From the IMG/VR virus record IMGVR_UViG_3300005294_000012: 20,000 nt of DNA; one strand, written 5' to 3'. Origin of the DNA: an uncultured virus (IMG/VR IMGVR_UViG_3300005294_000012). Lineage: Duplodnaviria > Heunggongvirae > Uroviricota > Caudoviricetes. This document shows positions 2,699 through 19,917 of the stretch, in pieces. Position 1 is the stretch's first letter. Each line of letters starts with the position of its first letter. Under the pieces are notes generated by a model. The model was not told the DNA's origin. It saw only the letters and a list, made by a program, of their open reading frames with translations, and searched no databases. Position numbers and translations under genes: made by a program.

Positions 2699-3196
2699 AT
2701 GGGTTGGGGCGACGATCAGGACGACCAGACCTGGGATGACGTCGCGTCCGACCGCAACCAGGAGCCGACCGACCGCTATCGCCGCGACCCGAACCAGCCC
2801 TACCGCTCCATCTGGGACGACCCCGATGATGATGAGGAGGAGAACCCGGCCGAAGGCTACAAGTACCGCAACAACGGTCTGGTCCAGAACAAGGGCAACA
2901 GCATCTGGGGCGCGCCGGCGCCCGGTACCCGGTGGGGCGACGGTCCGAACAACGTCGACCTGGACGATCATGGTGATCCGGTCGGACCGCGCGGCGGAGT
3001 CAGCTACGGCGGCTTCGGGTTCCACCGGGGGCAGACCGGGCACGGGGTCAAGACCAAGTACGACGACGTGCTGGCCAAGTACCAGACCATCCGCCATCCC
3101 GGCGGGGCGATGCGCAGGAAGATCAAGGCCGAACTGGAGCGCCGGATGCCGAAGGCCGAAGCGAGGAAGATCATGAAGGACCACAACTGGCTATGA
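2699..3196 (+). CDS. Hypothetical protein, acidic N-terminus and basic C-terminus
   Basis: Starts 3 nt after the previous stop; ATGA overlap downstream. Confidence 0.7.
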   Translation: MGWGDDQDDQTWDDVASDRNQEPTDRYRRDPNQPYRSIWDDPDDDEEENPAEGYKYRNNGLVQNKGNSIWGAPAPGTRWGDGPNNVDLDDHGDPVGPRGGVSYGGFGFHRGQTGHGVKTKYDDVLAKYQTIRHPGGAMRRKIKAELERRMPKAEARKIMKDHNWL

Positions 3197-4746: not shown

Positions 4747-5283
4747 ATGGTTACCCGACTTCAGATCGTTGACGACCCGGGTGAGGACGACCGCGACGAG
4801 GAGGCTGCCGGCGTCCCGCAGCGGGAACGCGCGGCCAACATAATGGGCACCGAGCGCCGCCAGCTGATCATCGAGCTGGCCCGGGGTACCCGGCGGATCG
4901 TTGATCTTGCCTTCGAGCACGAACGCCCGCCGCAGGTCATCTCGAATTTCAAATACCGGAATAAGCAGGAGATCCTGCAGATGCGACGGGTGCTGGATTC
5001 CAAAACAGCTGATCTACATTTCGCAATTCAGCTGCACCGAATCGCCGATGCCGAGCGCCATCTGGCCTTTCTCGATGATCAGATCCGCAGAATGCAGGAG
5101 GGATTCCTGGACGGCGAGGAGGTCGACACCAAGGAATTGCGAGGTCTTATCGCCGACGCGTCGAAACTTCGTAAGGAGATCCGCGAGGAATTGAAGCCGA
5201 CCATGTCCCTGGGCGATATTCAGGTGACCCCGTCGAAGAAATACGGAGGCCAAAACTGGTTTGGTGAGGAGGGCGAGACATGA
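4747..5283 (+). CDS. Putative terminase small subunit-like protein
   Basis: Coupled by ATGA to the terminase large subunit homologue; HTH-like N-terminus followed by helical segments. The call rests mostly on position. Confidence 0.55.
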   Translation: MVTRLQIVDDPGEDDRDEEAAGVPQRERAANIMGTERRQLIIELARGTRRIVDLAFEHERPPQVISNFKYRNKQEILQMRRVLDSKTADLHFAIQLHRIADAERHLAFLDDQIRRMQEGFLDGEEVDTKELRGLIADASKLRKEIREELKPTMSLGDIQVTPSKKYGGQNWFGEEGET

Positions 5284-6575
5284 GTATGCCTGTTCTCCTC
5301 GACGACTACGTGGCGATCGGTTCCAACTGGGAGGCGTGCACAGCTACCGAGCAGGAGGTGATCGTCACCGGTCAATCGGGCAGCGGGAAGACCCGCGCGC
5401 TGCTGGAAAAGGTCCATCGGGCTTGCAAGGAGTTCACCAACATCAAGGTGTTGCTGCTGCGCAAGCGCAGTGCTGATCTGGCCGGCAGCGCTCTGGAGTT
5501 GTTCCGTGATCATGTCGCTGGGCCGGCGCTGCACACCGGTGAGGTGAGGTTCTTCGACGCTTCCCGCTCGGAGCCGGCGCGCTATGAGTACCGCAACAGC
5601 GGGTCGATGATCGTGCTGGGTGGGCTGTGGCCTCCGACGCAGGCGACCAAGGTCACCAACTCGGAGTGGGACATCGTCTGTGTGATCGCGGCGAACGAGC
5701 TGACCGAGCACGACTGGGAGCTACTGATCCCGCTATGCCGCAACGGGTCGCTGCCGATCAACCAGCTGATCGGAGAATGCCAGCCACAAGGCGATGATCA
5801 CTGGATCCTGCAGCGCGCCAAGCGCGGCCAGCTGCGACTCATCGAGGGCGTCATCGAGGACAACCCGCGCTGGTTCCGCAACGGCGAGATAACCAGGGAG
5901 GGACGGGCCTTCATCGCCAAGCTGGACGCTCTCACCGGGGTCACCAAGCTGCGCAACCGGTACGGCTACTGGGTGGCCGCACAAGGCCAGTGCTGGCCCA
6001 GCTACAACGACAAGGTCCACCTGATCGAGCCGTTCCCGTTCCCGTTCCACTGGCCCACCTGGTGGAGCATCGACTTCGGGAAGGTGCACCCGTTCGCGTT
6101 CGGGCTGTTCACCATGGACCCCAACGGCCGAGCGTTCCTAGTGAAGCAGATCCACATGTCCGGCCGGGAGACCGAGGAGCACTGCCGCGACATCCTGCGG
6201 ATCACCCAGCCGTACGCCTCGCCGACCGACATCATCACCGATCACGCGGCCAACGACGTGGCGATCTGTGAGCGGATGTTCGGCCGCAAGGTGGTCTTGG
6301 CCAACAAGTCCGTACTCGAGGGCATCGACTACGTGGAGAAGCGGTGGGCGCAGCGCAAGCTGTTCATCTTCGATGACTCCCTGGTCGAGATCGATGAGAC
6401 GTTGCGGTCGCGTGGCCGGCCGATCGACCTGCAGTCGGAGATCCCGGGGTACGTGTGGCAGTCGGGCAAGCGTTCCAAGGAGGGCCCGGTGAAGGCCTGG
6501 GACGATAGTTGTGACATGACGCGTTACTTCATCGCCGAGCAGGACGCGCCCGAGCAGTGGGAGGTGAGCTGGTGA
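5280..6575 (+). CDS. Terminase large subunit homologue (PBSX-like) with degenerate Walker B
   Basis: Walker A GQSGSGKT; HW and DNP motifs; nuclease-domain carboxylates in SIDFG..HPF, ITDH and DDSCDMTRY. Confidence 0.9.
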   Translation: MSMPVLLDDYVAIGSNWEACTATEQEVIVTGQSGSGKTRALLEKVHRACKEFTNIKVLLLRKRSADLAGSALELFRDHVAGPALHTGEVRFFDASRSEPARYEYRNSGSMIVLGGLWPPTQATKVTNSEWDIVCVIAANELTEHDWELLIPLCRNGSLPINQLIGECQPQGDDHWILQRAKRGQLRLIEGVIEDNPRWFRNGEITREGRAFIAKLDALTGVTKLRNRYGYWVAAQGQCWPSYNDKVHLIEPFPFPFHWPTWWSIDFGKVHPFAFGLFTMDPNGRAFLVKQIHMSGRETEEHCRDILRITQPYASPTDIITDHAANDVAICERMFGRKVVLANKSVLEGIDYVEKRWAQRKLFIFDDSLVEIDETLRSRGRPIDLQSEIPGYVWQSGKRSKEGPVKAWDDSCDMTRYFIAEQDAPEQWEVSW

Positions 6576-11747: not shown

Positions 11748-11874
11748 GCTGTAACGGAAATGCGCACGGGGGAGCCGGCACTGTCGGCTGCATGGGGCGC
11801 CGCCTGTTGGGGGCGAGCTCGGGGGATGATTGGTGGGTCCGGCGATGTCAGGCCATGGCGCCGGACCCTTCCAA

Positions 11875-11947
11875 TCCTCGGTAGCTCAGCCGGCAGAGCG
11901 TCGGATTGTTAATCCGCAGGTCGCTGGTTCGAATCCAGCCCGGGGAG
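11875..11947 (+). tRNA. tRNA-Asn (GTT)
   Basis: Acceptor stem TCCTCGG/CCGGGGA; D arm GCTC/GAGC; anticodon loop TT-GTT-AA; T arm GCTGG-TTCGAAT-CCAGC; discriminator G; CCA not fully encoded (CCG). Confidence 0.95.
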
Positions 11948-11963
11948 CCGTAACCTGATCAGC

Positions 11964-12245: not shown

Positions 12246-12292
12246 CTAGGTAAGCTCACCCGCGAGGCCATGATGGGGGAAAGGTCTCACGC

Positions 12293-14644
12293 ATGCCCAC
12301 GGTCAAGATGATCAACCCGGTGACCTTTGACGAGATCACCGTTGACGGCGGACAAGCCGATTACTGGGCCAACAAAGGCTGGGTCCAGATCCTCAACACT
12401 CCGGACGGGGTCTTCTGGGGTACCCCAGGGGCCAATCCGGTGGTCGCCCGCCCCTTGATCGAAAAGCTGCAGTCCGCCACCGAGTACGCGGCTGTGGCCG
12501 TGTTTGGCGACAACTCGGCGAACGCCAACACCGAGTGGTTCTTCCAGCTGATGCAGTGGCTGACGCTGAAATTCCCGGCCTACTCGGTCACCCATCTCAG
12601 CTGGAACGACACCCTGCAGTTCTGGGACAACCTCAGCCAGGCCGCTGGGATCAACTACCAGATGCAAACCGGTACCGCCGGCGACGCGTACGTCGATTTC
12701 ACCGGCGCCGGCACTCTGACCACCCCCAACGTTGCCGCACTGCAACTCACCGGCAGCCTGGACATCCGGGTCAAGGCCCGCGCCAACGACTGGACGCCGG
12801 CAGCCAACATGGTGCTCACCTCCAAGTACGGTGCCGCCGGCCAGCGCAGCTGGCGCTTCTACCTCTCCACAGCTGGCAATCTGATCCTGGAAGTCAGCAC
12901 CGACGGCACCGCGACAGCGGCAGCCACCTCCTCGGTAACCACCGGCCTCACAGACGGTACGGACAGCTGGGTCCGGGCCACTCTCGCGGCCTCCTCCGGA
13001 GCGGTGAACTTCTACCTCTCCACCGACGGTGTCACCTGGACACCACTCGGCACCCAGCAGACCATCGCCGGCTCCCCGCTGACGCTGTTCAACTCCACCC
13101 AGGCCCCCGAGGTCGGCGGGCGCGGTGGTGGCACCGAGCCGTGGTCCGGCCGGATCTACTACGTCGAATGGCGCTCCGGGCTGGACACCGCAGGCGAGCC
13201 CCGGCTGATCTTGGACCTGGACACCGCGATCGGTTCGGCAGCCGACATGTCCGGCGGCACCAACACGTTCAACGACTACGCAGGGCGAGTGTGGACGATC
13301 TCCACCTCGGCCCTGGTCTTCGGCGGAGCCCCCGGCATCGTGCTGTTCAACGGGTCCGGGCCGGCCACCGCGATCACCTACTCCAACGACGGCACCCGAG
13401 GCCCGAAGCAGCGCGCGATCATCGCCCCCGACATCGCCATGATCAACTACGGGCTGAGCGACGGTGGGCAGACCTACCGCACCGCGTACAAGCAGCTGGC
13501 CGACGCGTTCATCGCAGCCTGGGCCGACGTCGGCGTGGTGGCTGTGGTGCAGCCCCCGAAGGTGGCGCCGGCAACCTCTGTTCAGATCAAGCAGCACGCT
13601 GTCAGAAACCGTCAGATCGTCTCGCTCGCGCAGTCCCAGCGCTACGGTGTCATCGATGCTTTCTTGAGCTTCACCAAGGACCCGCGCGGCGCTGTCGCGT
13701 TGATGGACGGTACCGGGGTGATGCCCAACACTGACGGCTGGGCAGCCTGGCTGGATGCCGGGAAGCGTTTCTTCATCGACGTGATGGCCTCGGACTCGAT
13801 CTCTGAGCCGGCGATTAACGGCTTTCAGCCTTTCGTCTCGGTCAAGGTTGACAGGATCCTCGGTAGCGGCAACTGGAACAAGCCGGTCGGCGCCCGCGCC
13901 CACTATGTGGCCATCTTGGGCCCAGGCGCCGGCGGCGGCTCTGGCCGGCGAGGGGCAGCTGGCACCCAGTGTGGCGGTGGCGGTGGCGGTGGCGCCGGCG
14001 CCAAGGCCGTCTCCTGGTTCGCCTCCTCGAGCCTCACCGATGTGGTTGCTGTCAGCATCGGTACCGGTGGCGCCGGCGGTGCTGCGGTCACAGTCGACGA
14101 CACCGACGGCAACGCGGGATCCGCCGGATCCCAGTCGAGCGTCTTCGGGTCTTACCTGCTGGCAGCCAGGGGCCAGTCCGGCGGCGGAGGCGGCACAGCA
14201 GCTGCAGGCGGTGCTGCCGGGACCTCAGCCGGCTCTGTGGGTTCTGGCGGTGCTGGTGGTGCTTCAGGAGCTGGCGCTGCTGCCTCCTCGGCAGTGGCCG
14301 GGGCTGGCAACGGTGGCGGCGGTGGAGCCGGTATCACCTCCGGTGGCACGGCGAACACCGGTGGAGTGGCTTTCCCGCCGTGGGATGCCAACCAGACCTC
14401 GACCAGCGGCGGCGCAATCAACGGCTCCGGATCTGACGGTGTCGACCGGATCATCGGCGAGGCCCTCGGCGGTTACGGCGGAGGCGGTGGCGGATCTTCT
14501 GTCACCGGTCCTGGCGGAGCTGGTGGCAAGGGCGGCAAATACGGCGCAGCTGGTGGCGGCGGCGGAGCGTCTCGCAACGGCAACAACTCCGGTAAAGGCG
14601 GCGACGGTGCCGACGGCATCTGCGTCGTGGTATCGGTCTTCTAG
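12293..14644 (+). CDS. Probable minor tail/virion protein: SGNH-like fold with inserted LamG/concanavalin-like domain and Gly-rich C-terminus
   Basis: VAVFGD block, PDIAMINYG and GVMPN blocks; LDIRVKA...WVRATL...VNFYLS insert; GGGGGG-rich tail ending GGDGADGICVVVSVF. Confidence 0.8.
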   Translation: MPTVKMINPVTFDEITVDGGQADYWANKGWVQILNTPDGVFWGTPGANPVVARPLIEKLQSATEYAAVAVFGDNSANANTEWFFQLMQWLTLKFPAYSVTHLSWNDTLQFWDNLSQAAGINYQMQTGTAGDAYVDFTGAGTLTTPNVAALQLTGSLDIRVKARANDWTPAANMVLTSKYGAAGQRSWRFYLSTAGNLILEVSTDGTATAAATSSVTTGLTDGTDSWVRATLAASSGAVNFYLSTDGVTWTPLGTQQTIAGSPLTLFNSTQAPEVGGRGGGTEPWSGRIYYVEWRSGLDTAGEPRLILDLDTAIGSAADMSGGTNTFNDYAGRVWTISTSALVFGGAPGIVLFNGSGPATAITYSNDGTRGPKQRAIIAPDIAMINYGLSDGGQTYRTAYKQLADAFIAAWADVGVVAVVQPPKVAPATSVQIKQHAVRNRQIVSLAQSQRYGVIDAFLSFTKDPRGAVALMDGTGVMPNTDGWAAWLDAGKRFFIDVMASDSISEPAINGFQPFVSVKVDRILGSGNWNKPVGARAHYVAILGPGAGGGSGRRGAAGTQCGGGGGGGAGAKAVSWFASSSLTDVVAVSIGTGGAGGAAVTVDDTDGNAGSAGSQSSVFGSYLLAARGQSGGGGGTAAAGGAAGTSAGSVGSGGAGGASGAGAAASSAVAGAGNGGGGGAGITSGGTANTGGVAFPPWDANQTSTSGGAINGSGSDGVDRIIGEALGGYGGGGGGSSVTGPGGAGGKGGKYGAAGGGGGASRNGNNSGKGGDGADGICVVVSVF

Positions 14645-14653
14645 GGGGAGAGC

Positions 14654-14737
14654 ATGAACGGCAACGCTGTAATCGGGACCGTCATCGGAGTTCTGGTGAT
14701 CATCATCTTGGTCTTAGTGGTCTTGCGCCTGACATGA
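14654..14737 (+). CDS. Membrane micropeptide (27 aa)
   Basis: GGGGGAG SD; MNGNAVIGTVIGVLVIIILVLVVLRLT. Confidence 0.65.
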   Translation: MNGNAVIGTVIGVLVIIILVLVVLRLT

Positions 14738-14814
14738 GCGACGCGGCGGAGGCCGCAGTAGCGATCCTGATCGTCGTGATCATCGTGCTGATCTACACGC
14801 ATTGGGGTTCTTGA
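14734..14814 (+). CDS. Membrane micropeptide (26 aa)
   Basis: ATGA overlap; MSDAAEAAVAILIVVIIVLIYTHWGS. Confidence 0.55.
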   Translation: MSDAAEAAVAILIVVIIVLIYTHWGS

Positions 14815-14969
14815 CGAGGTTCGGTCGAGACCCTCATACTGGCCCGTAATTAGTAATTGCTCGACCAACGTAAGCGGCCTCGGAGTGAGGGACATCAGGC
14901 TAGCCTTCCCCTGCGAGCGAGTGCCGACCATCCTCCGAGGCCGAGACGACCCTACCGGAAAGACTGACC

Positions 14970-15428
14970 TTGCCTGAGACACCACGCATCACCAAAAAGA
15001 TGGCCGAAGATGCCGAGCAATGGGCCAACGGAACACCCGACTTCGAGGTCGGCGGGCTCTTCTTCTTCCCCGCCTCGGACGAGTGGGCCAATGAGCCCAA
15101 GTTCCTGCCGCTGACGAACCGGCACTTCGACCCCAAGAAGAACTTCGAGCTCACCTATGACGACCTGGCCGTAGCCATCAACGGCGCCTATACGCCGCAG
15201 CGATCCGCCGGCGGCAGCTTCGCGATCTTCCACAGCCACCCCTTTAGCTCCGGGACGCCCAGTCACAATGACGAGATGGGGATCAAGTTCATCGCCCAGG
15301 AAATGGCCGGCCACCCGTGGTGGGAGCCCACCGAGCGGCACATGATTTTCAGCCTCTGGGACCAGTCCTGGTGGTGGTACGACCTGCGGGCTTTTGGCCG
15401 TGTCGGCTGGCAGTGGCCCGATTCTTGA
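14970..15428 (+). CDS. JAB/MPN (Prok-JAB) metalloprotease
   Basis: EVGGL...FHSHP....PSHND, a complete JAMM motif; TTG start preceded by GGAAAG. Confidence 0.9.
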   Translation: MPETPRITKKMAEDAEQWANGTPDFEVGGLFFFPASDEWANEPKFLPLTNRHFDPKKNFELTYDDLAVAINGAYTPQRSAGGSFAIFHSHPFSSGTPSHNDEMGIKFIAQEMAGHPWWEPTERHMIFSLWDQSWWWYDLRAFGRVGWQWPDS

Positions 15429-15442
15429 TTACGATTCGAGCC

Positions 15443-16321
15443 GTGAAACTTCCCCTCAAGATCACCATGATGATCGTCTCAGCCCTGACCGTCACAGCCT
15501 TAGGAGCCCAAGCAGCAATGGCAGATCTCGCCGACCTCGTCCTGGTAGCGCATCGCGGACTTTCCGACGCAGCGCAGAACAAGTACGGCATTCCCGAGCA
15601 TTCGGCCAAGGCCTACAACTGGGCGCTCGGGCAGGGTGCTGAGGTGCTCGACTTCGACGTCCAGTACACCCGGGACGAGAAGCTGGTGATCATGCACAAC
15701 ACCTCGCTGAACGAGACGACTAACGTCTCCGACAGCAAGGCCCAATACGTCAAGAACTGGGACCTGGACGACATCAAGAAGCTGTGGCTCGAGCTGCCCC
15801 GCGACCTCGACGGCAACGGCAATGATGACAACACCGACCAGCACCCGCTGTCGCTGAGCCAGGGCCTCAACCTGGTGCAGCCGAGAACCTTCGACGGCCG
15901 TCCGGTGATGATCACCCTGGAGACCAAGGGCAGCTGGAGCCTGGACCGGATGAAGCGGCTGTACACCGTGATCAACGGCCGGGGCATGAGGGACCGGGTG
16001 ATCCTGCACTCGTTCAACCTGGACCACGTCAAGTGGGCCAAGACTGCCGGATTCCCATTGCGCGGCTATGTGGTCGATAGTGACGCCTCGGTGGCGCTGC
16101 CTTCGCCGGCGACGGTTAAGACCTACGCCACCTACGTGTTCGTGCCGCTCGCCAAGCTCACCGCAGCCAAGGCCGATGAGTACCGGGCAGCCGGGATTAA
16201 GGTCGCGGTCTGGACCCTGGACAACACCGGCGAGTACGACCAGGCGGTCCAGAAGAGCGCAGACATCTGGATCTGCAACGACATCGCCGAAGCCCAGGAG
16301 TACCTGGAGCAGGTTGCATGA
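15443..16321 (+). CDS. Glycerophosphodiester phosphodiesterase (GDPD) family protein with signal peptide
   Basis: AHRG, PEHS, DFDVQYTRD..LVIMH, LETK, SFN and VWTLD motifs; N-terminal MKLPLKITMMIVSALTVTALGAQAAMA. Start codon uncertain. Confidence 0.88.
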   Translation: MKLPLKITMMIVSALTVTALGAQAAMADLADLVLVAHRGLSDAAQNKYGIPEHSAKAYNWALGQGAEVLDFDVQYTRDEKLVIMHNTSLNETTNVSDSKAQYVKNWDLDDIKKLWLELPRDLDGNGNDDNTDQHPLSLSQGLNLVQPRTFDGRPVMITLETKGSWSLDRMKRLYTVINGRGMRDRVILHSFNLDHVKWAKTAGFPLRGYVVDSDASVALPSPATVKTYATYVFVPLAKLTAAKADEYRAAGIKVAVWTLDNTGEYDQAVQKSADIWICNDIAEAQEYLEQVA

Positions 16322-16527
16322 ACGATGAGCGACGCCTACGGGTCACCTTCGAGTACAAAAAGCCTCCCGAGTGGGGTGAGGGCTGGAACAAGACCAGTCG
16401 CGAGGGAGGCGAGGACATCATCGACCAGTACAACAAGCTGCGAGAGTGGGAGCGCACCGGTGAGGAGCCGATCCGCAATGTCGTGCTCGAGGAGCTGAGT
16501 GTGACCGCCCAAGTGATCAGCGAGTGA
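16318..16527 (+). CDS. Hypothetical protein
   Basis: ATGA and GTGA overlaps. Confidence 0.75.
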   Translation: MNDERRLRVTFEYKKPPEWGEGWNKTSREGGEDIIDQYNKLREWERTGEEPIRNVVLEELSVTAQVISE

Positions 16528-17195
16528 GCGCCGAAGAGGGACACCAGACCTTCACCACTGCCGATGGCCGGGAGATCCGCCGGCCGCGCCGCAAGAAGAA
16601 CAACAGGCTCACCGACCGCTACCAGAAGCTCGTCGATGGCGAGATCGACGTCGAGGACCTGGACGAGGAGGAGCTGTTCAAGGGCATGCTCCGGGACAGC
16701 CAGGGCCACATTCGAGGGCATCACCCGGCAGCGATCCCGTGGGTGATGCACGACGCGTACGTCAGGCACGTCAGCCGGCACCTCGAGGCCACCCTGGTCC
16801 AGTCGATGCCAGACATTCTCGAGTCCTTGATCGACATCGCCACCGGCGGCGGAGACTACGACGCCGGGATCACCATGGACGTCCGCGCGCGGGCAGCGAT
16901 GTACCTGACCGACCGCATCATGGGACGGCCAACCGAGCGCAAAGAGCTGGACGTCAAGGTTCATGCGCGTTGGGAGCAGGCTTTCGATGGCGGTTCTCTT
17001 GTGGTTGACATCCCTGATCCGGATATCATCGATGCGGAGCTGGTCGAGAGTCCCGCAGAACTCGAGCCAGCGCTCCCACAGGGCGAAGTTCTGGTCGAGC
17101 GCACGCCTGCAAGTGGTCGAGCCACGGACGGGGCTGGGAGCCCCCAAGAAGATCGCCCTCGGTCCCGTCCGCAGACCGGTGTCAAGCTCAGGTAG
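16524..17195 (+). CDS. Conserved actinophage protein, putative terminase small subunit
   Basis: GEIDVEDLDEEEL.KG..RD..G...G motif and RARAAMYLTDRIMGRP helix resemble actinophage small terminases. The function call is tentative. Confidence 0.55.
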   Translation: MSAEEGHQTFTTADGREIRRPRRKKNNRLTDRYQKLVDGEIDVEDLDEEELFKGMLRDSQGHIRGHHPAAIPWVMHDAYVRHVSRHLEATLVQSMPDILESLIDIATGGGDYDAGITMDVRARAAMYLTDRIMGRPTERKELDVKVHARWEQAFDGGSLVVDIPDPDIIDAELVESPAELEPALPQGEVLVERTPASGRATDGAGSPQEDRPRSRPQTGVKLR

Positions 17196-17216
17196 TGAAA
17201 GTTCATCTGATAACTG

Positions 17217-17245
17217 GTGACAGAAGTTCGGCCTAGGTCTAGTCT
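17217..17245 (+). promoter_or_regulatory. Candidate promoter for the lysis/structural operon
   Basis: GTGACA-17nt-TAGTCT, about 150 nt upstream of the endolysin start. Confidence 0.55.
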
Positions 17246-17402
17246 TCAAACGTCAGCCGGTCGCGACCATCCCCCGATCGCGGAGACCGACATCTCACGA
17301 GAGCCTCGCCTAGACACCTAACCCCCGATGGGTCGGCGAGGCTCTCCCAGTTCTCGGACCTGCTGTGCTTAGCTGCTGAAGAATCGGCACTTCGGGGGAG
17401 GC

Positions 17403-18353
17403 ATGGCGACCGGCGATCAGGTCTGGCACCGATGGACCGGTCCCGGGTATTCCGTCCGGGTCAACCGCAAAACCGATGACGCCATCCGCGAGGCCTATCG
17501 GCTTTTCCACCAGGTTTACCCCGACGTCCCCTCTCCCGGACTCAGCCAAGGCGGCATGTTCGGGCTCGGCGAAGGGGCCGACGCCTCAGCTGGTACTCAC
17601 AACGGCGGTGGGGTCGCGGACTTCATCGTCAAAGGCATGTCGCGGCTGCAGATCCTGTACTTCGTCACCTGCCTCAGATGGGTCGGTTTCGCCGCCTGGT
17701 TCCGGCCGTTCGTCAAGGACCTGTGGCCGGATCACATCCACGCCGTACGCATCGGTGATACCTCCCTCGCCAAGGGCGCCTACGACCAGACGGTGGACTT
17801 CAAGAACGGCCTCACCGGGCTCGCCAGCGACCGCAAGGACACCCTGCATCAGTGGGTGGGCTGGACGACCTGGGAGCAGTACTCAAAGGGAACGGAGTTT
17901 TTCGAGATGACCGCCAAGCACTACTTCACCCGCAAGGAAACGATCATCAACGTCGGGGTCGAGACCTTGCTGCCGATCGCTGACAACGGCAACGTCTCGC
18001 TGCTCTCCGGACCGCTCCCCGACTTCTACGCCGGTGTCAACATCCGCATCGCTAACCTGCCGTCTGGCGAGGTGCTGCGGCTCTACCTGTCGCACTGGGA
18101 CTACAAGGCCGGCGTGCCCAGCGAGATGGTGGCCAAGGGCCTGCAGGTGGAGATCCCCGGCAGCGGCGGCAGCACATACTTCGCCACCGCCTTCGATGGC
18201 GAGATCGAGAAGTCGGCCAGGTCCGGCTGGCAACGCCGCATCCGGCTACTTGCCGAGACCGACTCACGGGGTGTCGTGTTGCCTGACGCCCAGGGAATCG
18301 AGAACATCAGCCCGGTAACAGTCACCAGGCTGGCCGTCACAACCCGAAAGTAG
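17403..18353 (+). CDS. Endolysin, Zn-peptidase (M15-like) domain plus unassigned C-terminal domain
   Basis: SAGTHNGGGVAD (H-x6-D), LRWVGFAAWFR and HIHAV; adjacent to a holin; GGGGGAGG SD. Confidence 0.8.
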   Translation: MATGDQVWHRWTGPGYSVRVNRKTDDAIREAYRLFHQVYPDVPSPGLSQGGMFGLGEGADASAGTHNGGGVADFIVKGMSRLQILYFVTCLRWVGFAAWFRPFVKDLWPDHIHAVRIGDTSLAKGAYDQTVDFKNGLTGLASDRKDTLHQWVGWTTWEQYSKGTEFFEMTAKHYFTRKETIINVGVETLLPIADNGNVSLLSGPLPDFYAGVNIRIANLPSGEVLRLYLSHWDYKAGVPSEMVAKGLQVEIPGSGGSTYFATAFDGEIEKSARSGWQRRIRLLAETDSRGVVLPDAQGIENISPVTVTRLAVTTRK

Positions 18354-18357
18354 AGAC

Positions 18358-18831
18358 ATGATCCTCACGATCATCACCGCGCTCGCTGTCAAGGTCAGCA
18401 CACTGGCCCTGATCGTCCTCGCGATCATCATCGATCCGGCGCTGGCTGCCAAGATCAGCGCGCTGGCCTTGATCGTCGGCACGCTCGGCAGTACCGCGCA
18501 GGCCCTGCTGCAGAAGCCCTGGTGGAGCCCCAAGGTCAAGTGGGCGCTCAGCTGGGTCTGGGCCATCGTGGGCGGCGCGGCCAGCTACATCACCATCAAC
18601 GGTCTGCCGACTGATCTCATGGATCTGGCAACCGTCTTCGCCTTCGTAGTCGGTGCGTACGGCTCCATCCGGCTCGCCTACGAGGCCCTCAAGCGACCCG
18701 TCCTCGACAAGATCGAGAAGGATGCCGGCGTGGGTGCCGGCGAGACTCCGCCAGGCCAGCAGGATCCCGCCGATCTGGACGACGAGGACGGGCACCTTTC
18801 AGCAGTACCGAACCCTTATGAGGGCCGGTGA
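18358..18831 (+). CDS. Holin
   Basis: Several TM helices and a charged C-terminus; lies between two cell-wall hydrolases. Confidence 0.75.
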   Translation: MILTIITALAVKVSTLALIVLAIIIDPALAAKISALALIVGTLGSTAQALLQKPWWSPKVKWALSWVWAIVGGAASYITINGLPTDLMDLATVFAFVVGAYGSIRLAYEALKRPVLDKIEKDAGVGAGETPPGQQDPADLDDEDGHLSAVPNPYEGR

Positions 18832-19400
18832 CCGTCACCGCATCGCAGGTCAAGAGGGTCCAAGAAGCTGGATTCCAGAACGTTTCCGCCATGGCGGCGG
18901 CGTGCGACGAGACCAAGTGCCCGTTCTACCTGGCAGTGGCCATGTTCGACAAAGAGTCGAATGGGGCAAACATCTACGGCCACGACAAGGGTGGCGCGAT
19001 GAACTACCCCGGTGAGAGCGTCCAAGTTACCCGGGACAGCTACGCAGTCTTCCGATGGCTGGTCGACAAAGGGATCCCGGTCCAGCAGCCCGACGGTTCA
19101 CTCAAGATCGTCAAATACGGCCCTAACGGCATCGGCCCGGGACAGATTACCCATCCGGACCTGGTCGCGCGGATCAAGTCCCAGGGGCTCGACATCGTGA
19201 ACCCGGCGGACAACATCCTCTTCAGCACCAAGCTGCTCTACGGCTATTACCGGTATGGCCGCGACGAGAAGAAGCTGGGAGTTAGGGACTCGATCAAGTA
19301 CGCCGGCACCCGATACAACGGTAATCCTGACTATGGCGTCGATCTGCTCGAGCAGGCGCTGAAGTGGAAGGAACGTGTCGGCGACGCCGACTACACCTGA
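18828..19400 (+). CDS. Lysozyme-like/lytic transglycosylase-family lysin
   Basis: AMFDKES (catalytic Glu), GIGPGQIT, NPADNI and RYNG...YG motifs. Confidence 0.8.
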   Translation: MTVTASQVKRVQEAGFQNVSAMAAACDETKCPFYLAVAMFDKESNGANIYGHDKGGAMNYPGESVQVTRDSYAVFRWLVDKGIPVQQPDGSLKIVKYGPNGIGPGQITHPDLVARIKSQGLDIVNPADNILFSTKLLYGYYRYGRDEKKLGVRDSIKYAGTRYNGNPDYGVDLLEQALKWKERVGDADYT

Positions 19401-19452
19401 TCACTATTAGGCTCTCCCCCGAGGCCACAACTGAACAAACGGGGGAGTACCT

Positions 19453-19917
19453 GTGGCCGACTTCGTCTTCAACATCGCCAAGGGCCGTGCGGCCGAGCTG
19501 ATGAACAACGTGGACGTAGGTTCACCGGCGAACAGCCGGCTGATTTTGATCCCGTTCAGCTCCACCGACACCGATGACGCGGTAGGCGACTGTGACACCG
19601 TGGCAGCCGTCGAGGCGCTGTCCAGCACTGCAGAGGTATCGGCGAACGGTTGGAACCGCAAGACGCTCGCGGCAGCTGACGTAACGGTCACCATCGACGA
19701 CACGAACAACCGGGTCGACGTCGACATCGTCAATGATCAGAACTGGACGCCGACCGCGACCGCTGTGACCGACCTGCTGCTGGCGTACGACAACGACAAC
19801 ACCGCCGGCACCGATGCGAACCTGATCCCGCTGCTCTGGTTCGACTTCGCGATCACCCCGGACGGTTCGCAGGTCGTAGCCCAGTTCAACGCCGCCGGCG
19901 TCTTCCGGGCCAGCTAG
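19453..19917 (+). CDS. Probable minor structural/tail protein
   Basis: MADFVFNIAKGR...RKTL...DDTNNRVDVD...LIPL..FDF..TPDG...GVFRAS resembles a common actinophage virion family. Confidence 0.7.
   Translation: MADFVFNIAKGRAAELMNNVDVGSPANSRLILIPFSSTDTDDAVGDCDTVAAVEALSSTAEVSANGWNRKTLAAADVTVTIDDTNNRVDVDIVNDQNWTPTATAVTDLLLAYDNDNTAGTDANLIPLLWFDFAITPDGSQVVAQFNAAGVFRAS

Follow-up and report, generated by a model that had tools for sequence, protein, structure and literature searches.

The putative endolysin gene of an uncultured virus is preceded, in the 20,000-nucleotide stretch of DNA analysed here (the window), by a structured leader whose two hairpin loops display the complement of the gene's own Shine-Dalgarno (SD) sequence. 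The question raised by this locus is whether the leader controls lysin synthesis and, if so, how. The reading we favour, with a probability of about 0.5, is that an uncultured soil actinophage uses this leader, acting in cis, to keep its lysis cassette translationally repressed. The features discussed below are listed in Table 1.

Table 1 Features of the lysin leader and of the neighbouring genes, with their positions in the window
Feature	Position	Strand	Description
Candidate sigma-A/sigma-70-type promoter	17218..17245	+	-35 TGACA 17218-17222, 17-nt spacer, -10 TAGTCT 17240-17245
Putative transcription start	17250..17252	+	5-7 nt past the -10, placed by promoter geometry only
5' domain / hairpin 1	17252..17291	+	basal helix GUCAGCC 17252-17258 with GACCGAC 17285-17291
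5' arm of the window-lineage long-range helix, GCCGGTCGC	17256..17264	+	perfect 9-bp complement of 17406-17414; in MFE and centroid folds
Hairpin 2	17299..17346	+	outer 12-bp stem 17299-17310 with 17335-17346; inner stem 17313-17318 with 17330-17334
Conserved CCTGCTGTGC (17359-17368) and possible short hairpin 3 abutting the SD	17359..17390	+	GTGC 17365-17368 with GCAC 17387-17390
Lysin translation initiation region (TIR)	17392..17405	+	SD TCGGGGGAGG 17392-17401; ATG 17403-17405
Putative endolysin, 316 aa	17403..18353	+	N-terminal peptidase-like domain and C-terminal jelly-roll domain
3' arm of the long-range helix, GCGACCGGC, codons 2-4	17406..17414	+	in the MFE/centroid fold of the window
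TM-rich holin-like ORF	18358-18831		downstream of the lysin
Second ORF with an ESNG lysozyme-like motif	18828-19400		downstream of the holin-like ORF
Simpler anti-SD hairpin	19413..19455	+	CTCCCCCG 19413-19420 with SD CGGGGGAG 19440-19447; upstream of GTG 19453

With regard to the gene itself, the putative endolysin has no Pfam match (E <= 1), PHROG match or PDB sequence match. In relatives, the N-terminal domain is joined to PG_binding_1 or GH25 lysozyme domains, and the residues H66, D73, H111, and H113 are invariant in 8/8 sequences. These residues may correspond to H-x6-D and H-x-H, the metal-binding motifs of LAS/M15-like zinc peptidase endolysins. The LAS/M15 family profile was not matched by the window lysin, and one distant relative gave a weak match to Peptidase_M15_3 (E 0.15). 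The N-terminal part of the structural model is of low confidence (pLDDT 28-81 by block), and the C-terminal part (residues 170-316) resembles C1q/BxpB/BC2L-C/tail-needle-knob folds. The neighbours of the leader are phage genes, with an ORF of unassigned function upstream and the lysin downstream.

Four distinct leaders from three divergent lineages were compared, namely those of the window, L001, L002, and L003/L004. The lysins of the relatives are 93%, 67%, and 66% identical to that of the window (overall range 66-93%). Leader and coding sequence are conserved to a similar degree, the identities to the window being 0.96, 0.66, and 0.71 for the leader and 0.91, 0.72, and 0.72 for the coding sequence. 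Leader and lysin have also remained together at a mosaic boundary: in L004, the upstream gene is unrelated to that of the window and one downstream gene is 97% identical. All four leaders have kept the promoter, GUCAGCC, the UCCCCC loop, GACCGAC, hairpin 2, the ACCCCCGA loop, and UCGGGGGAGGC, and all the copies found adjoin the lysin gene directly on its 5' side. MAFFT alignments of the leaders were structurally inconsistent in hairpin 1 and in the interior of hairpin 2. No DNA match to 16500-18400 was present among 50,697 phage records (megablast and blastn), and no relative of the lysin alone was found in viral contigs. Contigs from four DNA sequencing runs contained the L001-type variant only and no further lineage, and no RNA sequencing run containing the locus was found.

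The candidate promoter that the original prediction placed just upstream of the leader is supported by its conservation across lineages, though a generic scan was silent. The window, L001, L002, and L003/L004 share TGACA-N17-TAGTCT without any change, with the first 11 nucleotides of the spacer varying among lineages, and a conserved TAGGTC (17234-17239) immediately precedes the -10 TAGTCT. A sigma-70 scan of 16800-17800 returned 0 promoter sites, to which the candidate would be invisible because TAGTCT matches TATAAT at only three of the six positions. This hexamer presumably fits the actinobacterial TANNNT consensus of the -10 element. The nearest cultured relatives of the phage, as judged by the terminase, are Thermobifida and Streptomyces phages, and its host is therefore plausibly an actinobacterium. 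Between hairpin 2 and the SD, no conserved -10-like hexamer was seen across the lineages by eye, this comparison being, like the scan, insensitive to a phage-specific promoter type.

Hairpin 1, as first described, pairs CGGTCGCGA (17258-17266) with TCGC..GACCG (17278-17289); both strands can be read directly in the sequence, and this pairing ties the MFE. The hairpin is weak: its folding energy is -10 to -11 kcal/mol, with 51 alternative structures within 2 kcal/mol. The CGGUC/GACCG pairing at its base, an alternative of equal energy, can form in the window lineage only. Across lineages, it is GUCAGCC and GACCGAC that are invariant. Above this basal helix lies a variable stem (17261-17266 with 17278-17283), which reads UCGCGA/UCGCGG in the window, GUGG..CCAG/CUGG.CCAC in L002, and AGCGAC/GUCGCU in L003. 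The loop at 17267-17277 is CCATCCCCCGA, within which UCCCCCGA occupies 17270-17277, and its UCCCCC is kept in every lineage while the sequence of the stem changes. Covariation in related phages had been put forward as a check on the predicted structure, and both the stem of hairpin 1 and the inner stem of hairpin 2 were found to covary around fixed loops. In this comparison, 96.2% of the cells are paired and four pairs are changed on both sides, slid controls pairing at only 33-49%; the covariation score was reached by one in 500 shuffles.

For hairpin 2, the predicted 12-bp stem of GAGAGCCTCGCC (17299-17310) and GGCGAGGCTCTC (17335-17346) shows 100% complementarity. The hairpin is GC-rich and folds by itself at -30.5 kcal/mol, and its apical loop (17319-17329) contains ACCCCCGA (17321-17328). 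The sequence of the outer stem is identical in all lineages, bar one A-U to A.C change in L002, so that 11 of the 12 pairs never vary, whereas the neighbouring stems covary freely, the inner one being of the ACC/GGU type in the window, CCCG/CGGG in L002, and GUCG/CGAC in L003. An invariant outer stem among covarying neighbours points to sequence-specific recognition. A DNA operator was considered and rejected, since the distance enclosed by the outer stem varies from 23 to 26 nucleotides among lineages, which favours an RNA hairpin over an operator of fixed spacing. The hairpins could serve the mRNA, as a 5'-terminal stabilizer or as a processing or protein-binding site (for example, for RNase III, or for a phage RNA-binding protein at hairpin 2), with the match between C5 and G5 being secondary or coincidental. 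The basal helix of hairpin 1, which begins 2-3 nucleotides from the putative 5' end, would suit such a role. We nevertheless consider this explanation unlikely, as it accounts neither for the CCCCC kept in both loops by all lineages, together with a GA in loop 2 that matches the UC before G5, nor for the most buried TIR of the window, nor for the explicit anti-SD at a second gene of the clade, all of which are described below.

The position of this very stable, GC-rich hairpin between the promoter and the lysis genes is also what would be expected if hairpin 2, or both hairpins, acted on transcription, either as a terminator or attenuator of the upstream operon or of a short transcript, or as a put-like RNA that modifies the polymerase so that transcription reads through into the lysis genes. 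In L002, a UUUU run begins 7 nucleotides past the stem. However, the U content past the stem is low and not conserved, the sequences there being CCCAGUUCUCGG, CCCUGGUUUUAGG, and UCUCAGAUUCCU, and 16800-17800 contains 0 terminator-like sites. The conserved promoter is located upstream, not downstream, of the hairpins, which excludes simple termination of the upstream operon, and no similarity to any Rfam antitermination RNA was observed. An action on transcription is therefore very improbable.

Downstream of hairpin 2, CTGCTGTGC(C/T) is retained in the window, L001, and L003, its counterpart in L002 being CACCGTGCC. A weak hairpin of 4-7 bp is possible in this region in each lineage. The conserved motif is not repeated in the window beyond chance, with 38 matches at two mismatches against 31 expected. 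An upstream ORF in the leader (ATG 17328, 14 codons) was rejected, as it is not conserved in L002 or L003.

The complementarity of the RBS to both loops, which formed the core of the original prediction, is exact: TCCCCCGA in loop 1 (17270-17277) is the 8-nt complement of TCGGGGGA, and CCCCCGA in loop 2 is the 7-nt complement of TCGGGGG. In the window alone, this double match is only moderately unlikely (about p = 0.02). Among 5000 dinucleotide-preserving shuffles of the leader, 112 contained at least two 7-mer complements of the TIR and 407 contained an 8-mer; at the other gene starts of the window, two such sites occur in 0/17 cases and one in 4/17. We take the match to be beyond chance because of its conservation in relatives, not because of the window statistics. 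The four sequences share an unchanged SD TCGGGGGAGGC, and the three divergent lineages have all retained the C5 run of each loop as well as the extended SD (UC + G5). Duplexes between loops and TIR have predicted energies of -14.7 to -16.9 kcal/mol across the four leaders. The coding start of L002 and L003 is ATGGGGGAT instead of codons 2-4 of the window, which creates a second G5 run; there, the best partner of loop 1 is CAUGGGGGA and that of loop 2 is the SD. The window lineage lacks the second G5 and has, in its place, the 9-bp complement to codons 2-4.

This complement belongs to a more extensive nested pairing, which the first analysis of this DNA had missed. In the predicted MFE and centroid folds of the window, 17256-17277 pairs with 17392-17414, covering the SD, the AUG, and codons 2-4. 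As the 5' arm of the long-range helix overlaps the 5' side of hairpin 1, the two structures are mutually exclusive. The MFE of the full leader is -96.4 kcal/mol (z = -3.66), and none of 200 shuffles folds as well. In the fold ensembles of the window and L001, the bases of the SD pair with the loop-1 region at a probability of 0.85-1.0. The computed cost to open the region from -13 to +5 is 21.7 kcal/mol in the window, which is the highest among 19 gene starts (the median of the 18 others being 10.6), and it amounts to 21.3 kcal/mol in L001 and 25.6 kcal/mol in L002. Without the 5' domain, these costs decrease to 12.1, 13.7, and 19.3 kcal/mol, respectively. In the nested model, the cost for L003 is ordinary (12.8 kcal/mol, vs 11.9 without the 5' domain), and the case of L003 rests on the putative loop contacts, not on nested burial. 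When the 5' segments were swapped against the TIRs, the pairing was not lineage-specific, the window segment binding the L003 TIR at -43.8 kcal/mol compared with -41.6 kcal/mol for its own; for L003, 185 of 1000 shuffled 5' segments bind the TIR no less well than the genuine segment.

A second gene of the window, starting at GTG 19453, is preceded by a simpler anti-SD hairpin (Table 1), which forms an 8-bp helix in the MFE (z = -1.9). Its outer pair is C-G in the window and U-A in L001, L004, and L168, which is a compensatory change. Opening the TIR of this gene costs 17.3 kcal/mol, the second highest value among the 19 starts. The GGGGGAG motif had been noted elsewhere in the window as well; it is found at 14644 and 19441, plus an additional site at 11768, and SDs of the GGGGG type precede at least three other phage genes. 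A hairpin region at 14838-14990 is no more stable than shuffles (z = -0.21). Taken together, the computed burial, the conserved loops and SD, and a second C5/G5 hairpin in the clade support the anti-SD part of the original prediction, and it is the switch timing lysin translation that stays at the level of inference.

The sequence elements, their conservation, the covariation of the stems, and the predicted burial of the TIR are established, and the cis mechanism that we propose is built on them. The conserved promoter TGACA-N17-TAGTCT, probably of the host type, would start an mRNA at about 17250, and the first 100 nucleotides of this mRNA would fold into two hairpins whose loops display UCCCCC(GA) and ACCCCCGA. 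Once the lysin TIR has been transcribed, the C-runs would pair with the G5 Shine-Dalgarno UCGGGGGAGG and, in the relatives, also with the additional G5 run in codons 2-3. For the window lineage, the contact of loop 1 may extend to a helix of about 20 bp (17256-17277/17392-17414) that takes the place of hairpin 1 and sequesters the SD together with the AUG and codons 2-4. As the TIR would be buried by default, the default state would be translationally closed, and lysin synthesis would require either a kinetic window or a factor opening or cutting the leader. In this mechanism, we infer the transcription start, the contact between loops and SD in vivo, the repression, and the role in timing.

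The cis model does not account for the two-hairpin design, nor for the sequence-invariant 12-bp stem. Masking an SD in this way takes no more than one simple hairpin, such as that at 19413, and the elaborate design of the leader goes beyond the model. Moreover, endolysins usually do no harm in the absence of a holin, and the need for tight repression is not obvious. In another explanation, the first 100 nucleotides (about 17250-17350) constitute a phage sRNA or a dual-function leader similar to 6C, Scr3202, or F6, which would act in trans on the G-rich RBSs of host mRNAs or of phage genes (12275, 14644, and 19441), the lysin being expressed by read-through. Two hairpins with C5 loops located directly after a strong conserved promoter are in line with this explanation, as are the SDs of the GGGGG type at other phage genes and the plausibly actinobacterial host. 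In addition, the loops of 6C are reported to bring about chaperone-free repression at a G-rich RBS, AGGGGGG (PMC6486639).

The Rfam search proposed with the original prediction revealed a sub-threshold likeness to Scr3202 and F6, but no match at the gathering level anywhere in the window. The Scr3202 model (RF02833) aligns weakly over its full length with 17251-17348, which covers exactly the putative transcription start through hairpin 2 (17 bits, E 4.9); the gathering score of 52 bits was not reached, and neither L002 nor L003 was recovered. Hairpin 2 matched F6 (RF01791) with 30.8 bits in L002 (E 6.7e-4) and 19.9 bits in L003 (E 0.28), below the gathering score of 46 bits, and the window copy gave no match at E <= 10. 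The loop GACCCCCGA is common to the leader and to the consensus of the F6 model. For 6C (RF01066), no match was obtained at E <= 10 in the window at 17100-17500, in L003 at 940-1200, or in L002 at 2770-3040.

Further evidence against a trans-acting RNA comes from the transcript end and from the distribution of the element. There is no U-tract or terminator-like site past hairpin 2, and the mycobacterial RNA polymerase is reported to require a U-tract (PMC3993855). All the copies found lie directly upstream of the lysin, and no free-standing copy was found. In viral contigs, the 15-mer CTAGGTCTAGTCTTC occurs in 34 stretches, of which 33 are chance matches and one lies on an already known contig, and the pattern of hairpin 2 occurs in four stretches, with the C-run loop only in the known contig. 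In genome contigs, this pattern is found in at least 120 stretches, which are generic GC-rich palindromes, and the leader architecture is present in none of those listed. With a covariance model of the element, no second copy was detected in the window and in the relatives' loci, and when the covariance model R2 was run on 66 loci surrounding relatives of the 19453 protein, the only match was in the known contig. When R2 was applied to 3 and then 151 Actinomycetes genomes (154), only a sample of the first-look candidates was scored, so that absence is not proven, and four weak matches (E 0.008-0.77) were obtained, none of them convincing; these four were inspected and rejected as coding or unrelated sequence. 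Overall, it is doubtful that the leader is an sRNA of this kind. Even more speculative is a combination of both roles in one phage RNA, in which the C5 loops would close the lysin mRNA in cis and, as an abundant leader or 5' fragment, mimic host sRNAs of the 6C/F6 type on G-rich RBSs of host or phage mRNAs in trans, the lysin being freed when G-rich targets that accumulate late in infection titrate the loops. If this were true, host takeover and lysis timing would be coupled through one RNA.

Post-transcriptional control of the lysis genes of actinophages is little known, and this phage clade has no cultured member. A leader repressing its own mRNA in cis would represent a compact, chaperone-free translational control, based on the same G-C pairing logic that 6C uses in trans; loops that also acted in trans would be a phage copy of an actinobacterial sRNA regulatory logic. 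As a short and clearly delimited RNA of about 150 nucleotides with defined loops, the element is suited to reporter and probing tests. A limited literature search, by title and start of abstract, retrieved no prior description of a comparable endolysin leader or of a phage-encoded C-rich sRNA.

Among known systems, one comparison is with simple cis anti-SD hairpins such as RNA thermometers, in which an upstream C/U-rich stretch pairs with the SD of its own mRNA. The site at 19413-19447 is exactly of this plain type. In contrast, the anti-SDs of the lysin leader are located in two separate stable hairpin loops, 70-120 nucleotides upstream, and the analyses run here gave no hint of temperature sensing by the leader.

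Six Cs are expected in the loops of 6C from the name of the family, and the loops of the leader have five. Like 6C (RF01066; PMC6486639), the leader has two hairpins with C-rich loops that could pair with a G-rich RBS by runs of G-C pairs, and a high-GC Gram-positive context is probably shared. However, 6C is a free-standing, trans-acting chromosomal sRNA, whereas the leader is fused 5' of a phage lysin and its loops match the SD of that very gene. The resemblance to F6 (RF01791) lies in hairpin 2, with its long GC-rich stem beginning with AGCC.CG and its apical GACCCCCGA loop. F6 is described with a SigF promoter and a fixed site between fadA2 and fadE5 (PMC8557902), while the promoter of the leader is sigma-70-like and its neighbours are phage genes. 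The Streptomyces sRNA Scr3202 is also modelled as two hairpins with C-rich loops, of about 95 nucleotides, which align end-to-end with the leader; this alignment is a resemblance of shape and not evidence of homology.

The T4 gene e encodes a lysis enzyme and offers a comparison at the level of function, with no sequence relationship to the leader. In gene e, as in soc, 49, and I-TevI, the SD and/or AUG is located in an intramolecular helix, as is predicted for the lysin leader, and the inhibitory helix at the TIR of gene e is reported to lower lysozyme synthesis 100-fold (PMC3014915). The conservation of the structure among related phages is a further likeness, and the poor translation of some transcripts would be another. 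In T4, the late promoters lie within the 5' strand of the helix, so that late transcripts are devoid of the inhibitory arm (PMC3014915). In contrast, the sole conserved promoter of the lysin leader lies upstream of the whole structure, no conserved internal promoter having been found, and its anti-SD is displayed twice, in hairpin loops, rather than as one strand of a stem.

With regard to the leader, a folded RNA of about 150 nt in front of the putative lysin gene, the original prediction proposed that two hairpin loops display the complement of the leader's own ribosome site. Its hairpins, loops, ribosome site and complementarities agree base for base with the sequence. In loop 1, TCCCCCGA complements TCGGGGGA exactly over 8 nt; in loop 2, CCCCCGA does the same for TCGGGGG over 7 nt. 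At -30.5 kcal/mol hairpin 2 is highly stable, and hairpin 1, at -10 to -11 kcal/mol, only marginally so: 51 alternatives lie within 2 kcal/mol, and the form originally drawn ties with the optimum fold. By itself, the presence of both complements is no more than moderately unlikely: a pair of 7-mers complementary to the initiation region occurs in 112 of 5000 dinucleotide-preserving leader shuffles and an 8-mer complement in 407 of 5000, and among 17 other gene starts in the window none exhibits two such sites and four exhibit one.

Features of the lysis region and of its surroundings in the window
Feature	Coordinates	Strand	Remarks
Terminase large subunit	5280-6575	+	nearest cultured: Thermobifida phage P1312 (39%), Streptomyces phages (33-35%)
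tRNA-Asn	11875-11949	+	
Tail-fibre-like proteins	12293-16321	+	one with GDPD domain
ORF, function unknown	16524-17195	+	
Intergenic gap	17196-17402		207 nt, contains the leader
Hairpin 1	17258-17266 / 17278-17289	+	CGGTCGCGA with TCGC..GACCG; loop CCATCCCCCGA
Hairpin 2	17299-17310 / 17335-17346	+	perfect 12-bp stem; 24-nt loop, ACCCCCGA at 17321-17328
Ribosome site of lysin gene	17392-17401	+	TCGGGGGAGG; 1 base 5' of ATG 17403
Putative endolysin ORF	17403-18353	+	316 codons
Holin-like ORF	18358-18831	+	TM-rich
ORF with ESNG lysozyme-like motif	18828-19400	+	

The window has a G+C content of 63%, the genes examined all lie on the + strand, and its DNA has no matching record in the phage collection. 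The glycerophosphodiester phosphodiesterase (GDPD) domain of the tail-fibre-like protein at 15317-16321 suggests that this is a tail enzyme which degrades teichoic acid. For the 17403 protein, Pfam, PHROG and PDB sequences give no match. Proteins related to its N-terminal 140 residues carry fused PG_binding_1 or GH25 lysozyme domains, and H66, D73, H111 and H113, invariant in all eight sequences, fit the LAS-type zinc peptidase pattern H-x6-D / H-x-H. Its confidently modelled C-terminal half (residues 170-316) is a C1q/TNF-like, lectin-like jelly roll resembling exosporium BxpB/ExsFA, the BC2L-C lectin and phage tail-needle knobs, an unusual candidate wall-binding module for an endolysin. Because of these fusions, invariant residues and jelly roll, we label the protein a putative endolysin; the label is not proven.

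Seven close protein relatives of the lysin were found in metagenomes, and DNA was compared from four loci, whose lysins are 93% (L001), 67% (L002), 66% (L003) and 67% (L004) identical to that of the window. The leaders of L003 and L004 are identical; together with the window's own, the comparison covers four different leader sequences from three divergent lineages. Contigs of four DNA runs contained only the L001-type variant, and further searches of viral and genome contigs and Actinomycetes genomes gave, among the matches listed, only known contigs or chance matches. The candidate promoter placed just upstream of the leader is supported by its conservation: TGACA, a spacer of exactly 17 nt ending in TAGGTC, and TAGTCT are kept across lineages, with the first 11 nt of the spacer varying. 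This putative sigma-70/sigma-A-type promoter occurs once in the window; a generic promoter scan did not call it, because TAGTCT agrees with TATAAT at only three of six positions.

Within the leader, GUCAGCC is kept throughout and is followed by a short lineage-specific hairpin-1 stem (UCGCGA/UCGCGG, GUGG..CCAG/CUGG.CCAC or AGCGAC/GUCGCU), a loop that always contains UCCCCC, and a conserved GACCGAC able to close the domain with GUCAGCC. The inner stem of hairpin 2 also covaries (ACC/GGU-type, CCCG/CGGG, GUCG/CGAC) below an apical loop with ACCCCCGA in every lineage. CUGCUGUGCC, between hairpin 2 and the Shine-Dalgarno sequence (SD), is partly conserved, with a possible small third hairpin, and UCGGGGGAGGC plus AUG is conserved in all lineages. 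In a model-guided alignment, which is fitted to the structure and holds only four sequences, 96.2% of cells are paired, four pairs (all in hairpin 1) are changed on both sides, the covariation score is reached by 1 of 500 shuffles, and slid controls pair at 33-49%. Stem conservation takes the form of covariation in hairpin 1 and inner hairpin 2, and of sequence invariance in the outer 12-bp stem of hairpin 2, where one A-U becomes A.C in L002. This invariance would be best accounted for if the leader stabilised the mRNA or served processing or protein binding, a reading that we consider rather unlikely overall.

Overall, conservation of the leader (identity 0.96/0.66/0.71) is on a par with that of the coding sequence (0.91/0.72/0.72). 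The promoter coincides exactly with a mosaic joint (window 17196-17250; L004 1700-1740). Upstream of the joint, the 223-aa ORF of L004 bears no relation to the equally long ORF of the window, and its stop codon falls within the conserved TAGGTCTAG; downstream, the L004 genes are collinear with the window's, one being 97% identical. The leader remains with the lysin across the joint. The window's upstream ORF contains an inverted repeat at its 3' end (17125-17171, 76% complementary). In L001 and L002 this place is taken by a cleaner stem of 12-14 bp, CGGACGGGGCUGAG with CUCAGCCCCGUCCG, both arms of which differ from the window's. The repeat may act on the upstream transcript as a 3' stabiliser or as a terminator.

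The fold of 17196-17420 reaches -96.4 kcal/mol (z = -3.66; none of 200 shuffles is as stable). In the minimum free energy and centroid folds hairpin 1 gives way to a helix between 17256-17277 and 17392-17414, in which the loop-1 octamer is matched to the SD and GCCGGUCGC to codons 2-4, GCGACCGGC, as a perfect 9-bp repeat. In the window and L001 the SD bases pair with probabilities of 0.85-1.0. Opening the translation initiation region (TIR, -13 to +5) has an ensemble cost of 21.7 kcal/mol with the full leader and 12.1 without the 5' domain (17252-17291) in the window, 21.3 and 13.7 in L001, 25.6 and 19.3 in L002, and 12.8 and 11.9 in L003. At 18 other starts of the window the median is 10.6 kcal/mol, the next highest value being 17.3 at gene 19453. 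The L002 and L003 lysins lack the Ala-Thr codons and start AUGGGGGAU, which provides a second G5 run; there the best partners are CAUGGGGGA for loop 1 and UCGGGGG for loop 2. Across the four sequences, loop-to-TIR duplexes range from -14.7 to -16.9 kcal/mol. Each lineage is therefore predicted to be complementary to its SD and start-codon region by a different route. This is only suggestive, because the extended 5'-to-TIR pairing is not lineage-specific in a swap test (the window's 5' segment gives -43.8 kcal/mol on the L003 TIR vs -41.6 on its own), 185 of 1000 shuffled 5' segments bind the L003 TIR as well as the real one, and loop-SD contacts with both hairpins intact are pseudoknots, outside the nested folds used here. 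We give a probability of about one half to the leader repressing translation of the lysis cassette in cis.

Upstream of the GTG 19453 gene, the stretch 19413-19455 can form a plain anti-SD hairpin of CTCCCCCG with CGGGGGAG; here CUCCCCCG (19413-19420) is the partner of the gene's SD, CGGGGGAG (19440-19447). L001, L004 and L168, a further locus, carry UUCCCCCG with CGGGGGAA or UGGGGGAA, so the outer C-G pair of the window becomes U-A. Predicted masking of G5 SDs by C5 runs is thus a habit of this small clade; relatives of the 19453 gene at 57% identity or less (64 of 66 loci) exhibit AGGAG-type sites, with no such hairpin seen by eye. A further complementarity joins GGCCACA (19422-19428) to TGTGGCC, which spans the GTG 19453 start codon; this pairing and the anti-SD helix cross. 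The gene (19453-19917) encodes a 154-aa protein of unknown function (phrog_26662, beginning MAD), with relatives in 66 viral contigs (37-96% identity, wide G+C range), and is probably a conserved virion protein. GGGGG-type sites also precede a short ORF (ATG 14654; 14644-14738) and tail-fibre gene 12293 (GGGGGAAAGG, 12275-12295), with no C5 partner within 60 nt upstream of either. The + strand has 12 CCCCC runs, nine of which continue as CCCCCGA; most lie in coding sequence. A second promoter-like site, TTGACG-18-CATACT in 14811-14950, precedes a long hairpin (GGCCTCGGAG with CTCCGAGGCC) that encloses CCTTCCCCTG and has a GCCTCG/CGAGGC core in common with hairpin 2; its fold is no more stable than shuffles (z = -0.21).

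The original prediction also allowed for a two-loop sRNA. At gathering level, Rfam matches only the tRNA in the window and the leader none. Below it, Scr3202 aligns end to end with 17251-17348 (17 bits, E 4.9; gathering score 52), F6 matches hairpin 2 in L002 (30.8 bits, E 6.7e-4) and L003 (19.9 bits; gathering score 46), and 6C gives no match at permissive thresholds in the window, L002 or L003. The resemblances to actinobacterial C-rich-loop sRNAs concern design, family membership not being established. Such a design does have functional meaning: 6C uses its C-rich loops to bind the G-rich ribosome site AGGGGGG and represses translation with no need of a chaperone (PMC6486639). That the leader is a 6C-type sRNA, acting in trans or with a dual function, seems rather unlikely. 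An action on transcription is improbable. Hairpin 2 has no U-tract and a terminator scan called none; mycobacterial RNA polymerase is reported to require a U-tract (PMC3993855). In the literature searched, no earlier account of such a lysin leader was found. Functionally, T4 gene e comes closest: its TIR helix cuts the synthesis of lysozyme on early transcripts 100-fold, and late promoters inside the 5' strand bypass it (PMC3014915); a promoter scan and motif search found no such internal promoter in the leader, which in this respect differs from gene e.
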